This document shows positions 8,514-38,400 of a stretch of DNA of 43,633 bases, one piece after another (within the stretch, counting starts at the first letter, position 1; every line of letters starts with the position of its first letter). The stretch lies in IMG/VR virus record IMGVR_UViG_2563366881_000003; one strand, 5' to 3'. The notes beneath the pieces are model-generated. The model ran no database searches and was not told the DNA's origin. It saw only the letters and a list, made by a program, of their open reading frames with translations. The stretch comes from a virus (taxonomy: Duplodnaviria > Heunggongvirae > Uroviricota > Caudoviricetes). A program made the position numbers and the translations under genes.

Positions 8514-9095
8514 ATGAACAACTCATGGTGGCAGGAACTAATGCATTTTTTCCTGCAAGGAATGACACTTAAACAGTTGATTCATATGCTAATCATCCTG
8601 ATCATATTGATTATTGTTATGCCGGTAAGCGTAAAAGAATGGATAAACCTGCATAATCCAGAAATCCTTCCTCATTACTGGATGTATTACATCCTGTTGT
8701 TTTGCGTTAGCTATGTGCTTAACGGCGTTGTTAATTCCGCTTATTACGCTGTGACTGAAAGAATTGAGGTATTCGCTGCTCAGAAGCGCAAATCTAAAGA
8801 AGAGAAATACGTGCAAGATTTGTTTGATTCGTTAACTCTTGGAGAAAGAGCGTATTTGGCACTCGCTGTAGTCGCTAATAACCAGCTACAAACGGAAAAG
8901 GGAAGCCCTGAAGCAATCTCATTGCTCGAAAAAGGGCTTCTTATTCGGATACCTTCTGCTACTGGATATCCTGAAATCGACCGTTTTGTTATCCCAGAAC
9001 GCTATAGAAATGAGTGCTACATTAGGTTTGCTGGGAAGAAAGACAGTCTTATGGATGAACTTATCGCTCAGGATAAGCACGGCAAAAACAAGTAA
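8514..9095 (+). CDS. SieB-like superinfection-exclusion membrane protein (candidate)
   Basis: 193 aa, two N-terminal TM helices plus soluble C-terminal domain; size, architecture and early-left location resemble SieB of lambda/P22; transcribed opposite to the leftward operon. Confidence 0.45.
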   Translation: MNNSWWQELMHFFLQGMTLKQLIHMLIILIILIIVMPVSVKEWINLHNPEILPHYWMYYILLFCVSYVLNGVVNSAYYAVTERIEVFAAQKRKSKEEKYVQDLFDSLTLGERAYLALAVVANNQLQTEKGSPEAISLLEKGLLIRIPSATGYPEIDRFVIPERYRNECYIRFAGKKDSLMDELIAQDKHGKNK

Positions 9096-9241: not shown

Positions 9242-9775
9242 TTACTGGCTCCGTCCATGATTTTCATGAAAGCCATATAGTGCATTGGCTTCTTTCCTTG
9301 CTTGTTTGGCATCATCTAAAAGTTTGAATGAGCCTAGGTATTTTCGTTTTCCATCCACAGTTATCGATGCAACATAAAACCCATGCTCTTTTCTTTCTTC
9401 AACACCTGTAACTCCAGTTGATGAAGATGATTTTAAAGGCATGTTTTTCATATTCTCTTTGAAAGAAACGCTTCTTAAATTGGAGATTCTGTTGTCATCC
9501 TTAACGCCGTTTATGTGATCAATCACATCAGGCCAGTAGCCATGCACGTAAAGCCATGCAAGTCTGTGAGACTTAAATTTTTTACCTCCAATATTTATTC
9601 TCAGATAACCCTTGTTGTCAGGTGAGCCAGCCTTTTTACCTGGATACTTCTTGTTCCACGTCAAGGCAGCTCTGTTATCCGCAAACAAATGCTTTGCTCT
9701 CGGCTTCCAATAAAAGTCACCACTCACAGGATTGTAATGAAGAATCTCCCTTACAGACACTTGAGTAAGATCCAC
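9242..9775 (-). CDS. HNH endonuclease with AP2-like DNA-binding domain (paralog 1)
   Basis: Motif HRLAWLYVHG...IDHINGVKDDNRISNLR, C-terminal GV(T/S)... AP2-like segment; paralogous to three other ORFs in the window. Confidence 0.8.
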   Translation of the reverse strand: MDLTQVSVREILHYNPVSGDFYWKPRAKHLFADNRAALTWNKKYPGKKAGSPDNKGYLRINIGGKKFKSHRLAWLYVHGYWPDVIDHINGVKDDNRISNLRSVSFKENMKNMPLKSSSSTGVTGVEERKEHGFYVASITVDGKRKYLGSFKLLDDAKQARKEANALYGFHENHGRSQ

Positions 9776-10017: not shown

Positions 10018-10725
10018 TTATCCGAATCGCTTGTAATCGATTGACTGCCTAATGAGGACTTTGGCTAGAATGTGAAGTTGCTCTTCTTCACCTTCTTCTA
10101 TGTACCATCGATCATAAGCGGCATTGTCAGAGATGACGGCAAGCCTGTTCTTTTGCATTTGCAGGCGCTTAACGTGCATTGTTTTCCCGTATACAAACAC
10201 ATAAATGCCATCGCCATCAAAATAGGTTATGGATACATCAACAAAGATCTCATCTCCCGGATTGATGGTTCCCTCCATGCTGTCACCGCGAACCGTGATG
10301 ACTTTTACGCTTTCCTGTGGCCTTCCATTAAATAAAATTCTTGCCTGCTCGGGCGTATATTCAATTGCTCTTATCTTTTCTATAAATTCATTGGAAACCA
10401 TGGTTCCTGGCCCGGCGCTCGCCTGAACATCCAATACATCAACACGATAAGAATCATTTGATCTTGATAGATGATTTACCGTGATACCGTCATAATCAGC
10501 ATAGCCATGCAGATATGCAGCAGTAGTTCCCAGCACCGAAGCCAGAGATTCCATCTTGTCTTTTCTTGGTATTGACTCCCCGTTGAACCATTTACTAATG
10601 GCTTTTGGTGTGACCTTAAGCCTGACAGCTAAATCAGCCTGCCTACCATGCAAAGGTAATCCCGCTTTATCACAGGCCAGCGCAAGCCTCTGCGAGAAAG
10701 TTTCACGCTCTTTCTGTTGAACCAT
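10018..10725 (-). CDS. cI: CI-type prophage repressor (HTH plus S24 LexA-like peptidase domain)
   Basis: C-terminal GDSMEGTINPGDEIFVD ... HVKRL (Ser/Lys dyad); start at MVQQKE (ATG 10725) lies inside an operator palindrome with no SD, consistent with a leaderless transcript. Confidence 0.8.
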   Translation of the reverse strand: MVQQKERETFSQRLALACDKAGLPLHGRQADLAVRLKVTPKAISKWFNGESIPRKDKMESLASVLGTTAAYLHGYADYDGITVNHLSRSNDSYRVDVLDVQASAGPGTMVSNEFIEKIRAIEYTPEQARILFNGRPQESVKVITVRGDSMEGTINPGDEIFVDVSITYFDGDGIYVFVYGKTMHVKRLQMQKNRLAVISDNAAYDRWYIEEGEEEQLHILAKVLIRQSIDYKRFG

Positions 10726-10733
10726 AAGTTCAA
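10717..10733. promoter_or_regulatory. Operator (OR3/OR2-like) palindrome TTGAACcataaGTTCAA overlapping the cI start codon
   Basis: 17-bp site with perfect 6-bp inverted half-sites; a second copy occurs 57 bp away. Confidence 0.6.
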
Positions 10734-10745
10734 CTATATTAGGTA

Positions 10746-10790
10746 TTGACTGTACTATCAGTTCCGTCATAATATGAACCATAAGTTCAC
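10746..10790 (+). promoter_or_regulatory. pR-like promoter (TTGACT-16/17-CATAAT) with OR1-like operator TGAACcataaGTTCA at 10775-10789
   Basis: Consensus-like sigma70 hexamers upstream of cro; operator palindrome overlaps the transcription start region. Confidence 0.6.
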
Positions 10791-10804
10791 CACAGGAGAG
10801 AAGC

Positions 10805-11035
10805 ATGAACGAAGTTACGTTTGGAGAAGTTATCAAATCCGTTCGAGTTTCTGTTGTGGCTGATGTTTGTGGACTTACGCCAAAAGCCATCTATAAGTGG
10901 CTTGAGCGTGGTTCTCTGCCGCGTACCGAGTTCACTGGTGAAACCGAATATGCGGATAAGATCGCCAAGGCATCAGGCGGCAAGTACTCAGCAGCACAGA
11001 TTCGCCGTATCGGTAAACAGCAGTTTGTTATGTAA
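10805..11035 (+). CDS. cro: Cro-like repressor
   Basis: 76-aa HTH-like protein divergent from cI, SD AGGAGAG upstream. Confidence 0.7.
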   Translation: MNEVTFGEVIKSVRVSVVADVCGLTPKAIYKWLERGSLPRTEFTGETEYADKIAKASGGKYSAAQIRRIGKQQFVM

Positions 11036-14614: not shown

Positions 14615-15025
14615 GTGAAGCAAACAATCTTCCTCAGAACTAAGCAACAACAGTAAGCCGCAATCAACGCCATCCTCGCAACACCACTCGATAAAGACAA
14701 GCCAGTCACCATCCGCATTACTGACTACAAGCGCAACCTTGACCAGAACGCAAAATTTCACGCGATGGTCGCAGATATCGCCAGGCAAGTTCAGTGGCGC
14801 GATAAATGGTTAAAACCAGAACAATGGAAGGTTTTGTTGATAAGCGGTCATGCAGTGGCAACAAAGCAGGAAGCTGATGTTTTGCCCGGGCTTGAAGGCG
14901 AATACGTCAACATTCGCGAAAGCAGCGCGCAGATGAGTGTGAAGCGTATGGCAAGTCTGATTGAGTACACGACAGCATGGGCTATTGGTCAGGGTGTCAG
15001 ATTTACCGACAGGAGGTACGAATGA
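14615..15025 (+). pseudogene. ninB: ninB (recombination protein NinB/Orf) interrupted by an in-frame TAA at 14654-14656
   Basis: GTG 14615 with AGGAG upstream encodes MKQTIFLRTKQQQ, then TAA, then the same frame continues AAINAILATPLDKDK...NLDQNAKFHAMVADIARQVQWRDKWL matching recalled lambda NinB across the stop; codons checked by hand. Confidence 0.7.
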
Positions 15026-15198
15026 GACGACAGCGACGAAGTTTCACCGACATCATCTGCGAAAACTGCAAATACCTTCCAACGAAACGCTCCAGAAATA
15101 AACGCAAGCCAATCCCAAAAGAATCTGACGTAAAAACCTTCAACTACACGGCTCACCTGTGGGATATCCGGTGGCTAAGACATCGTGCGAGGAAATGA
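15022..15198 (+). CDS. NinD/NinE-like small basic protein
   Basis: 58 aa [22 protein letters not shown]...; start overlaps ninB stop (ATGA). Confidence 0.55.
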
Positions 15199-34929: not shown

Positions 34930-37043
34930 TGGCCTATAGTCGTGAACAGTTGATGACGGCGTTAAGGAATGCTGATGCTGCCGGCGATACTGAGGGAGCA
35001 CGTCGCATTGCTCAGATGCTGTCTTCTGGTGATCAATCCACTCAAAACCAATCGCAGCCAGAAGAACAATCTCTGGTGGGAAAAGCTACTGACTGGCTCA
35101 CTGGTGGTCAAAGTGCAGGGCAAATTGCAGAACAGGCTGGTCGTGGTCTGGTAAACATACCATTTGACGTATTGCAGGGTGGCGCAAGTCTGATTAATGC
35201 AATCAGTCAGGGGCTTGGTGGCCCCAAGGTTTTGGATGATGTTTATCGCCCTGTCGATCGACCGACAGACCCTTACGCGCAAGCCGGTGAAACAATTGGT
35301 GGGTATCTCCTGCCAATTGGCACAGCGGCAAAAGCTGCTGGAGCGCCAGCAAAGCTCGCTGAAGATATCGGTTCCGCAGGAAACATGATTGCAGGTTCTC
35401 TTGCTGATTCTGCAAATCAGGAGGGCGACTTTGCACAAAATGCTGCCATTAACGGTGGTATCAATATTGGTGCTCAAGGCGTTCTTTCAGGTGTCGGGCG
35501 CGTTATTGCGCCAAGGGTTTCACAGGCTCTTGGTGGTGCAGCACTGAATTCTGCTAATGATGTTTCCAGGATGGCAAAGTCAGGTTCTGGGCGTCAGTCA
35601 ATTGCCAGTCAGGCCGCTAATGTGTCAGAAGATGTAGCAAAAGCGGCTGAGTCTGCTGGAATTGATATAAACGCATTAACACCAGGAATGCGATCTGGAA
35701 GTCGTGGAATTGCACAAGCCGAAGGCGCATTGGCATCAACACCAGGAATTGTTCAGGACGCCCATCAGGCAGCATTTAACGAAATATCATCAAAGTTAAG
35801 TCGAAACCTTGATGAATTTGGGGCCGCATCTGGAACGGCATCAGAAAAAAGTGCGGCTATAAAACAAAGGATTCTTCAAAATCTTGATCAGATGAAGGAT
35901 GCCGAGCGCGCGGCATGGGATGACGTGCGGTCAACAATGCCAAATCAAAAAGCAAGAATGCTAAATGGTAATGCCGTTATTCAGGCAGAGCGATCTGCTG
36001 GCATACCGCTTACTCCTGAAATGAAACAGTTTGTTCAGGCAAACAATCAAGGTGGAGTAACATTTGATGGCATGAAAGCATGGAGAGCGAAATTTGCTGA
36101 TGCGGAGCAAAAATATAAGCGTAGCGGAGAGGCAAATGCGGCAAGGAGAGCAGGGGAAATACGCCGGGCAATTACTGATGATATGCGCACAATGGCGGAA
36201 AACGGCGGATTTCTTGATGACTGGCAAAAAGCTAATGATCTGTCTAAAGCGAGGTTATCAGCACAAGAGAATGCAGAGTCTGTTTTCGGGCGTGATTTGG
36301 CAACAGATGCACTGATTACGAATGGAGTAAAATCCCTTCAATCATCGTCAGCTAAAGGTCTTAATGGTCCTGCTGGATTCCATTCTATGATCCGCGCGCT
36401 GCCAGAATCAGAGCGTGTTCCTGCTATATCATCAATGTTGCAGGATGCTATCTCGCATGGTGTACGTGGTGGCAAATCTGATGCAGCAGGAATTAACCAT
36501 ATCGCAGAGATACTCACGCCACAAAATGTAAAAGCCATTAGCCGATATTCCTCAGAGCTTGGAAGAATTGCTGATGCATATGGCACTCTTGCAAGAGCAG
36601 CAGTGAAACCTCAGCAGCATATTGAAAGAACAGGGCGAACTGCCAATGTACTACGTGATCTGGATGCTGGTTTATCCAACGTTACATCAACAGTGTTAAA
36701 TGCAATTGCCAATTCAACATCAGGTGCCATTGTTGGTGGAGCAGGAGGAGGGGGCGTTGCTGGCGCTGCCGCTGGCGCTTTAGTTGGCGCAGGGTTAAAA
36801 GGCGCTGTATCTAAAATTGCCACCACACGTAGTGGTCGGTATGCGATAGAGAAAGCAGTTCAGGAAGCCACTAAAGCAGTAAGAACCGGCGGAAGCAAAG
36901 AAGCATTAGCTGCGGCGGAACGCAGATTTATGGCAAATAAGGCCGCTGTAAAAGCGATACGTGATACAGTCGGAAACGAAGAGTTTCAGCGATTAGCGAG
37001 AGCTGGGATTGTGGCATCGCTAAGCGGAATGGCACAGGAGTAA
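34929..37043 (+). CDS. Ejection protein, P22 gp16-like
   Basis: 704 aa at the gp16 position, Gly/Ala-rich C-terminal region. Confidence 0.65.
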
Positions 37044-37138
37044 TTAGTCGTCCACGGATGGATTGATCTTATCTCGTGCTTCACATTTGGTTGTTTTGTC
37101 ATTAGGATGTTTCCGGTTTTTTAAATATGGAAATTGAT

Positions 37139-37429
37139 ATGAAGAGGCTCATTGCGGTTGCTTGTTTTAATGTCTTTCTTTTATCTGGTTGTGCAACATC
37201 TTCTAAAACATACGCCCCTGATGGTAGAGAAGCATACACTATTGATTGCTCAGGTCTGGGGGGATCATGGGGGATGTGCCTAACTAAGGCTGGCGATTTG
37301 TGTGGAAGCAAAGGATATGATGTACTGACATCAGCTGGAGATAAAGGATTTATAGCATCAGCAAACCCCGAAATGGCGTTTGCAGGCAATACCATCTCAA
37401 GGAATTTACTCATCGCTTGTAAAAAGTGA
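37139..37429 (+). CDS. Moron lipoprotein, 96 aa
   Basis: Signal peptide with lipobox LLSGC; Cys-rich mature region. Confidence 0.55.
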   Translation: MKRLIAVACFNVFLLSGCATSSKTYAPDGREAYTIDCSGLGGSWGMCLTKAGDLCGSKGYDVLTSAGDKGFIASANPEMAFAGNTISRNLLIACKK

Positions 37430-37446
37430 ACTAGCGCCATGGATGG

Positions 37447-37824
37447 CTATCTTATTGATTTACCATAATTATACATCTCAACATGAGCGCTGGCATACGC
37501 TCTCGCTGAATGATCATCAATTAAAGCTTTCTTTGCAGCTTTATAGTTATATTCCCATAATAAATTTGTATCATATGACTGATTTTCAATTCCTTTTTCA
37601 CAAGTAAATATCAATCCGTTTATTGTTGATATTTCAACCGGGCTAATTTTCCCATCGGTTCCACTGCGCAATCCTGAGAGGATAAGGTCTCTATCACCTG
37701 TAAGTAACTTGCGATAATAAACATCTGCTGCCTTTGCAGAGCATTCTGCACTAGATGCAAAAGATGCATTAGATATTATCAAAAGCATACCAATAAGAAT
37801 TAACTTTAGGGCGCTAACCTTCAT
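37447..37824 (-). CDS. Secreted (signal-peptide) protein, mnt-linked, about 125 aa
   Basis: N-terminal signal peptide MKVSALKLILIGMLLIISNASFASS; start overlaps mnt stop. Confidence 0.5.
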   Translation of the reverse strand: MKVSALKLILIGMLLIISNASFASSAECSAKAADVYYRKLLTGDRDLILSGLRSGTDGKISPVEISTINGLIFTCEKGIENQSYDTNLLWEYNYKAAKKALIDDHSARAYASAHVEMYNYGKSIR

Positions 37825-38071
37825 TGTTCTTGCCATAAATTCTTTTCAGTGTATCGAATACCATTTTTTTTACAATTTCAGACTGCTCATCAGCAATTTT
37901 CTCAGCTTCGTTGCGATAACCAACTACAGGAGATGGTTTTGATAGAGCGTCTTGGACGATTTGCAACAGCTCGGAGTTCATAGATCTCCCATTCGCCTCT
38001 GCTCTGAATTTCAATTTTTCTCTCACTTCCAAAGGCATGCGGAAGTTAAAGTGCGGATCATCTCTAGCCAT
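37814..38071 (-). CDS. mnt: Mnt repressor (P22 immI)
   Basis: MARDDPHFNFRMPLEVREKLKFRAEANGRSMNSELLQIVQDALSKPSP... matches recalled P22 Mnt. Confidence 0.9.
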   Translation of the reverse strand: MARDDPHFNFRMPLEVREKLKFRAEANGRSMNSELLQIVQDALSKPSPVVGYRNEAEKIADEQSEIVKKMVFDTLKRIYGKNNEG

Positions 38072-38093
38072 GCCGTTACTCCAAGTCAGTGTA

Positions 38094-38145
38094 TTGACAT
38101 GATAGAAGCAGTCTACTATATTCTCAATAGGTCCACCGTGGACCT
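38094..38145. promoter_or_regulatory. Pant/Pmnt control region: Pant TTGACA-17-TATATT, Oarc at 38099-38119, Omnt palindrome AGGTCCACCGTGGACCT at 38129-38145
   Basis: Oarc and Omnt match recalled P22 operators (one central change in each). Confidence 0.8.
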
Positions 38146-38161
38146 ATATTGTGAGGTGAAT

Positions 38162-38323
38162 ATGAAAGGAATGAGCAAGATGCCGCAGTTCAATTTGCGG
38201 TGGCCTAAAGAGGTATTGGATTTGGTACGCAAGGTGGCGGAAGAGAATGGTCGGTCTGTTAACTCTGAGATTTATCAGAGAGTAATGGAAAGCTTTAAGA
38301 AGGAAGGGCGCATTGGCGCGTAA
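38162..38323 (+). CDS. arc: Arc repressor (P22 immI)
   Basis: [53 protein letters not shown], 53 aa, matches recalled P22 Arc. Confidence 0.95.
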
Positions 38324-38324
38324 A

Positions 38325-38400
38325 GTTGAAGCCCCAACTGCGGGAACAGTCAGGGCTTCTGTTGTCAGTAAATCCGTGGAGAAAAACCAACATGAATAGT
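38325..38400 (-). ncRNA. sar-like antisense RNA covering the ant ribosome-binding region (candidate)
   Basis: Arc-ant intercistronic hairpin GAAGCCC...GGGCTTC at 38330-38361; P22 has sar here. Confidence 0.35.

Follow-up and report, generated by a model that had tools for sequence, protein, structure and literature searches.

The 43,633-nt stretch of DNA analysed here (IMG/VR record IMGVR_UViG_2563366881_000003, called the window below) carries a group of genes and control elements which an initial annotation had read as an intact P22-type immI circuit, in which both operators differ from those of P22 by one central base and in which a sar RNA possibly lies between arc and ant. The locus raises the question whether it holds a complete immI module of the P22 kind, and whether the two operator changes and the supposed antisense RNA make it anything other than an ordinary copy of that module.

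Extent and identity of the immI module

Reading of the sequence between 37500 and 39600 along with the list of ORFs gave a leftward ORF of 85 aa, a gap of 90 bp, a rightward ORF of 53 aa, a gap of 68 bp and a rightward ORF of 300 aa, followed by a stem-loop with a T-run and by the start of the tailspike gene at 39395. As listed in Table 1, the three ORFs are mnt, arc and ant, and together with the overlapping and divergent promoters Pant and Pmnt, the operators Oarc and Omnt, the leftward sar with its promoter Psar, and the ant terminator they make up a complete immI module over 37814-39337. The range 38072-38400, which had been assigned to the circuit at first, lies inside this module but omits mnt, Psar, most of ant and the ant terminator. 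P22-type immI is defined by a leftward mnt and rightward arc-ant with a control region of about 90 bp holding overlapping divergent promoters, by a 21-bp Oarc set between the two hexamers of Pant and a palindromic Omnt of 17 bp just 3' of the -10, and by the domains of its proteins, namely a ribbon-helix-helix (RHH) domain plus a tetramerisation C-domain in Mnt, a 53-aa RHH protein in Arc, and the N and C domains of Ant. All of these were found in the window, the protein domains far above their gathering scores (PF03869 and PF11423 for Mnt, PF03869 for Arc, PF10547 and PF10548 for Ant), and we found no feature of the sequence that contradicts the P22-type immI explanation.

Table 1. Features of the immI module, with positions counted over the whole window
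Feature	Position	Strand	Details
mnt	37814..38071	-	maintenance repressor, 85 aa; Pfam Arc 2.5e-28 and Repressor_Mnt 1.6e-16; nearest solved structure PDB 1mnt (P22 Mnt), 6.6e-43
Pant	38094..38122	+	-35 TTGACA 38094-38099, 17-bp spacer, -10 TATATT 38117-38122; 11/12 in consensus scan
Pmnt	38099..38127	-	TTGAGA, 17 bp, TATCAT; divergent, overlaps Pant; 10/12 in consensus scan
Oarc	38099-38119		21 bp, ATGATAGAAGCAGTCTACTAT; C->G at 38111 (position 13); 20/21 match to P22
Omnt core	38129-38145		AGGTCCACCGTGGACCT; centre C (38137), G in P22
Omnt palindrome	38127-38147		21 bp, ATAGGTCCAC-C-GTGGACCTAT
arc	38162..38323	+	53 aa; Pfam Arc 9.8e-31; nearest solved structures PDB 1arq/1par (P22 Arc), 5e-31
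sar	38391..38324	-	antisense RNA, 68 nt; 5' end abuts ant ATG, 3' end abuts arc stop codon
sar stem-loop II	38328-38359	-	terminator hairpin, 14 pairs including 3 G-U; collinear with P22 sar terminator 15021-15058
ant	38392..39294	+	antirepressor, 300 aa; Pfam P22_AR_N 1.8e-44 and P22_AR_C 5.7e-30; SD GGAG 38378-38381
Psar	38398..38426	-	inside ant codons 3-12; extended -10 TTGCTATACT (38407..38398), poor -35 GTGTTC
ant terminator	39313..39337	+	intrinsic; 7-pair stem (5 G-C) then TTTTTTT; collinear with P22 and epsilon34 terminators

Megablast of 37800-39400 against phage records matched epsilon34 at 95.6% over 1556 bp and about forty P22 and P22-like records at about 87%. BK000583, a curated record of P22, and EU570103, that of epsilon34, served as annotated references. 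An alignment to P22 immI, which the initial annotation had named as a check of its reading, was performed, and the annotated elements aligned column for column. Over the control region the three-way alignment of the window, P22 and epsilon34 was gap-free with a mean column identity of 98%, and each annotated feature can thus be transferred by coordinate.

The immI of epsilon34 (genes 16-18 and sar; EU570103, PMC2629481) resembles that of the window in gene order, in spacing and in all regulatory elements. Its Ant is identical at 297 of 300 residues and its Arc at 52 of 53, and the two sar RNAs are one linker base apart. The epsilon34 copy differs in having C at position 13 of Oarc and G at the centre of Omnt, and in the last ~10 codons of mnt along with everything downstream of mnt, where epsilon34 has hkcB and gp15 and the window has two unknown ORFs; furthermore, its host is Salmonella Anatum, whereas the window has the backbone of an E. 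coli prophage. The paper describing the epsilon34 genome reports the module, its frequent mosaicism and mosaic variants, and its presence in P22-like prophages of E. coli (PMC2629481). In the archetype, P22 immI (BK000583, X01916), the order and coordinates of the elements and the hexamers of Pant and Pmnt are identical to those of the window. At the DNA level P22 is more distant (87.3%), and its Arc agrees at 52 of 53 residues (R16K) and its Ant at 257 of 300. P22 Mnt, of 83 aa, shares 72 identical residues with the Mnt of the window, with M14L as the sole difference in residues 1-49 and with a different C-terminal tail. Three substitutions separate the two sar RNAs (in loop II, the linker and loop I), and Psar shows a change from GTGTTA in P22 to GTGTTC here in the -35 region plus one change in the spacer. 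P22 also has sieA and orf59a beside mnt, where the window has neither.

Similar control regions were noticed in E. coli itself. The 90-bp mnt-arc control region was matched at 89 of 90 positions (98.9%) in prophages of six complete E. coli genomes (UID2309220041, UPEC_U013, ST12468, P13-6, ETEC1716 and ET245), which come from human, pig and frog isolates on three continents. UID2309220041 is 98.7% identical over 37000-39400, including the two unknown ORFs, and some of these prophages, such as that of UPEC_U013, have an ant module different from that of the window.

The presence of a P22-type immI circuit, as read at first, was confirmed by these identities and by the Pfam and Rfam matches. We consider it very probable, with little room for doubt, that 37814-39337 is a complete and sequence-intact copy of immI (the "ant moron") in an E. 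coli prophage of the P22-like kind whose relatives include HK620 and Sf6, and that both of its operator differences are neutral or near-neutral natural alleles. By its sequence, the copy is an already known system in an ordinary allele, in which every feature that defines P22-type immI or the sar family at the level of sequence is present. The immI system, with its Arc, Mnt and sar, is among the best-studied regulatory modules of phages; the present copy adds one natural-allele data point to it and is of little importance beyond annotation.

We also weighed whether the module could be a decaying, non-functional remnant which is only passively carried. In the late operon of P22-like phages, mosaicism is greatest in the ant moron, which is also frequently degraded, ant or arc being degraded in HK620 and Scho1 (PMC2629481), and the sar hairpin is absent from 24 related loci. 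In the window, however, mnt, arc and ant are all full length with intact ribosome-binding sites, and both hexamers of Pant, both operators, the extended -10 of Psar, both stems of sar and the ant terminator are conserved. Substitutions relative to epsilon34 and P22 are mainly synonymous: ant differs from that of epsilon34 in 17 codons with 3 amino-acid changes and from that of P22 in 114 codons with 43 changes, arc differs from P22 in 6 codons with 1 change, and mnt codons 1-76 differ from P22 in 31 codons with 6 changes, a pattern in all three genes which fits purifying selection. Four substitutions of the window are rare or unique among related loci, and all of them lie outside the hexamers, the operator half-sites and the stems: A->T at 38415, in the spacer of Psar, which is also Ant E8D; G->T (+ strand) at 38360, in the linker of sar, a base seen in eight loci of the Oarc-anchored set including the window; a change at 38075, in the mnt leader; and the divergent C-terminal tail of Mnt, residues 77-85. 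We regard decay as extremely improbable, and the word "intact" in the original description holds at the level of full-length ORFs and conserved elements.

RefSeq phage records and phrog_795 name homologues of Mnt "partition protein ATPase", although Mnt is a ribbon-helix-helix repressor of 83-85 aa, and this label looks like a propagated misannotation. It is advisable to label mnt, arc, sar and ant as such in the present record, which would stop the spread of this and of the automated label "hypothetical".

Promoters, operators and their natural alleles

Pant is collinear with the annotated arc/ant promoter of P22 (BK000583 14793-14821) and Pmnt with the annotated mnt promoter (14798-14826). 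Pant had been credited with consensus hexamers at a spacing of 17 bp, which is correct for its -35 and its spacing, but not for its -10, TATATT, which departs from consensus. Among 109 related loci, both hexamers of Pant are unchanged in 108-109.

Omnt is the only site of its kind in the window, with about zero expected by chance. It had been described as one central base off the P22 operator, and this proved right on the + strand, where the 17-mer shows G->C at 38137; read on the minus strand, it has no mismatch to P22. Since Omnt is a palindrome of odd length, the central G->C change is the same as the P22 site read from the other strand. The apparent Omnt variant is thus an artefact of the choice of strand on an odd-length palindrome. 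The symmetry of the site extends here over 21 bp (38127-38147), exceeding that of P22 (..CCTGT) and epsilon34 (..CCCAT), each of which is broken at one outer position. A column table was made from 109 related IMG/VR loci plus P22 and epsilon34, in which the centre of Omnt was found to be the most variable column of the mnt-arc intergenic region (G in 70, C in 37 and A in 2 of the 109 loci), while in each of the half-site columns flanking it 0-2 loci deviate. T was seen at the centre in another locus, whose sequence was too short to enter this table, so that all four bases occur there. As the centre column is the most variable and its flanks are nearly fixed, the central base pair of Omnt looks unconstrained, and natural variation confirms that it is free.

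Oarc is the sole match in the window to the 21-mer of P22 at up to 3 mismatches (0.00 expected by chance), and it differs from P22 and epsilon34 alike by the single C->G at 38111. The earlier description of one central base was right as to the number of bases only; the change affects the 13th of the 21 bases, which lies between the half-site cores and two places off the centre (position 11). On the bottom strand of the right half-site it turns ATAGTAGAG into ATAGTAGAC. The left half-site, ATGATAGAA, has A at the equivalent place (position 9), as against the G on the right bottom strand of P22, and wild-type Oarc is therefore already asymmetric at the position that changed.

Under a rival reading, G at position 13 (G13) alone, or together with the C-centre Omnt, would measurably alter the affinity of Arc or Mnt and thereby retune Pant and Pmnt or make immI partly hetero-immune. 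To be unbiased for Oarc, a sample of 109 loci was anchored on Omnt. Canonical Oarc was found in 95 of them and G13 in 6, which makes it the commonest natural single-base variant of Oarc. Other single-base changes were seen in 4 loci: C18T in two (L116 and L118, the former differing also upstream, in the Pant -35 region), T14C in one, and TTGGCA in one, the last of which sits in the Pant -35, outside Oarc. In 5 further Omnt-anchored loci, positions 8-14 of Oarc are largely different, with the outer AT[G/A]ATAG heptamers kept and the Arc beta-strand PQFNLRW unchanged. These five (L120, L121, L122, L124 and L125) have ATGATAGGATGATGCTATTAT, ATGATAGGACCATGGTATTAT or ATGATAGGACCATGCTATTAT as their centres, and it may be noted that their Arc differs at M4A and V18S.

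Some observations are in keeping with a functional change. G13 is nearly always found on one control-region haplotype, which includes the C-centre Omnt, beside at least three different ant modules, and the spread of a selected allele by recombination could account for this; position 13 also falls in the spacer of each of the two promoters, Pant and Pmnt. Against this, no co-variation of the Arc protein with G13 Oarc was seen among related loci: the Arc of the window (K16) is the commonest Arc allele there, being present in 63 loci, and the same allele accompanies C13 as well as G13, so that no compensation is seen on the side of the protein. Replacement of the whole of positions 8-14 is tolerated in loci sharing the Arc beta-strand, the changed position is asymmetric in wild-type Oarc to begin with, and the Omnt change is symmetry-equivalent to P22 at a column where all four bases occur. 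A functional effect of the operator changes is, in view of these findings, very unlikely. The same low estimate applies to the more specific proposal that the linked haplotype of G13 Oarc and symmetric 21-bp C-centre Omnt is a functionally distinct allele, spread by recombination onto several ant modules of E. coli prophages; we doubt it strongly, and if it were true, the haplotype would shift the timing or level of antirepressor, for example through a weaker right half-site for Arc and tighter binding of Mnt.

Of the six E. coli genomes described above, the three that were aligned (UID2309220041, UPEC_U013 and ST12468) carry both operator alleles exactly, and their only difference from the window in the control region is at 38075, in the mnt leader. 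Both alleles are established natural polymorphisms and not sequencing errors or new mutations. To return to neutral or near-neutral alleles, the reading we prefer, the changes in Oarc and Omnt do not, as far as comparison of natural sequences can tell, constitute demonstrable functional variants, the Omnt being symmetry-equivalent to P22 and the Oarc a recurrent polymorphism outside the half-site cores. Position 13 of Oarc appears to be tolerated, a view which is based on natural variation and not on published Kd values. It is the base of Oarc which varies most often in nature, and this fits the specificity of Arc lying in the outer half-site cores.

No P22-type Oarc was found in 185,579 species-representative genomes (596 Gb). 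A match to the Oarc pattern in a Dorea sp. MAG (CAJTVY010000013.1; L112 3079-3099) was rejected, as it was an isolated 20/21 match with unrelated flanks, and about one chance match is expected in 596 Gb.

A separate observation was made in another related locus, IMGVR_UViG_2907847951_000001 (L076, 8608-8680), in which Pant and Oarc (G13) are kept and Omnt is replaced by the palindrome GGTCAC-G-GTGACC. The Mnt of this locus has the beta-strand changes H6K and N8T (MARDEPKFTFRMP...), which looks like natural co-variation of the recognition residues of Mnt with its operator.

The sar antisense RNA and its promoter

Between arc and ant, where a possible sar-like antisense RNA had been proposed, we found a full-length match to the sar family of Rfam (RF00262; model positions 1-68 of 68) at 92.3 bits and E=1.5e-19, as compared with a gathering score of 43 bits, with no non-standard pairs flagged. 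Its position is that of the annotated sar of P22 and of epsilon34. The minus strand of the segment is predicted to form two stem-loops, with -29.4 kcal/mol (z=-4.75), as compared with -18.0 kcal/mol (z=-1.14) for its + strand. The RNA thus predicted is antisense between arc and ant, covers the SD of ant, has its promoter inside ant and its 3' hairpin near the arc stop, and in sequence and structure lies above the gathering score of the family. This supports its identification, from sequence and predicted fold, as a bona fide homologue of sar and not merely a "possible" one.

A hairpin at 38330-38361 had been proposed earlier as a sar-like RNA against the ribosome-binding site of ant. The hairpin does belong to sar, but it lies at 38328-38359 and is the terminator (stem-loop II) of the RNA and not its anti-RBS part, which is the 5' half, nt 1-28 (38391-38364), covering the GGAG of ant. 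Stem-loop II is more stable on the minus strand (-21.9 kcal/mol) than on the plus strand (-16.0 kcal/mol), where its three G-U pairs become A-C mismatches. Such strand asymmetry is as expected of a terminator for the leftward sar that lets rightward transcription of arc-ant pass. A role of the hairpin as an arc terminator or attenuator on the + strand was ruled out by these three mismatches and by the lack of a U-run after it.

The annotated Psar elements of P22 and epsilon34 are collinear with Psar of the window, whose extended -10 stops 7 nt short of the sar +1. Psar was missed by a simple consensus scan because its -35 is weak. The extended -10, as the motif AGYATAGCAA, is kept 70-71 nt from the start of the hairpin in most related loci bearing the hairpin, across different ant modules and sar 5' halves. 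We considered whether the diverse 5' halves found with other ant modules form a new class of RNA, and rejected this, as the representatives tested all pass as sar in Rfam, at 65-81 bits. Also rejected was a match of ctRNA_pGA1 over stem-loop II, which scores 22.8 bits where the gathering score is 45 and is not significant. Only in P22 itself have transcription of sar and its repression of Ant translation been shown (Liao 1987 and Wu 1987, cited in PMC2629481), and by RNA-seq sar is an abundant transcript of P22 (PMC13397905).

Predicted operation of the module and its prophage surroundings

Apart from the two papers cited below, the mechanism of immI in P22 is established knowledge owed to Susskind, Youderian, Sauer and McClure. 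By homology, the module of the window should work as it does in P22. In the lysogen, Mnt made from Pmnt would bind Omnt just 3' of the -10 of Pant and keep Pant off, so that no antirepressor would be made. Upon infection, a brief burst from Pant would produce Arc and Ant, and Arc would then bind Oarc, a site that sits between the two Pant hexamers and also covers Pmnt, and bring down both promoters. The sar RNA, transcribed leftward from Psar within the start of ant, would be expected to pair with the arc-ant mRNA, including the SD of ant, and block the translation of Ant. Ant, if made, would inactivate a prophage repressor of the CI/C2 type. The P22 mechanism behind this proposal is cited in PMC2629481 and PMC13397905. 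A repressor with HTH and Peptidase_S24 domains, encoded at 10018-10890, would be the expected kind of target for Ant.

The immC neighbourhood, in which this repressor gene lies on the - strand, also holds SieB at 8514-9095 (+) and an ORF for an HNH_3 endonuclease at 9242-9775 (-); the 290-aa ORF at 10018-10890 probably starts internally. Taken as a whole, the window is a prophage of E. coli with HK620 and Sf6 among its relatives, and a tRNA scan of it gave no integration-site tRNA.

The DNA-transfer gene and mnt are separated by two unknown ORFs, at the place occupied in P22 by sieA and orf59a. The first, at 37127-37429 (+), encodes a lipoprotein-like protein of 100 aa with the lipobox LSGC (phrog_5685), and the other, at 37447-37836 (-), a protein of 129 aa with a signal peptide (phrog_32609); neither has a Pfam match. 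The 129-aa ORF overlaps the 3' end of mnt by 23 nt on the same strand and may therefore be co-transcribed with mnt from Pmnt in the lysogen. On the other side of the module, the tailspike gene at 39395-41383 (+) encodes a P22 head-binding domain (residues 1-113) and a C-terminal Peptidase_S74 intramolecular-chaperone domain, and in this it differs from the tailspikes of P22 and epsilon34, which are endorhamnosidases.
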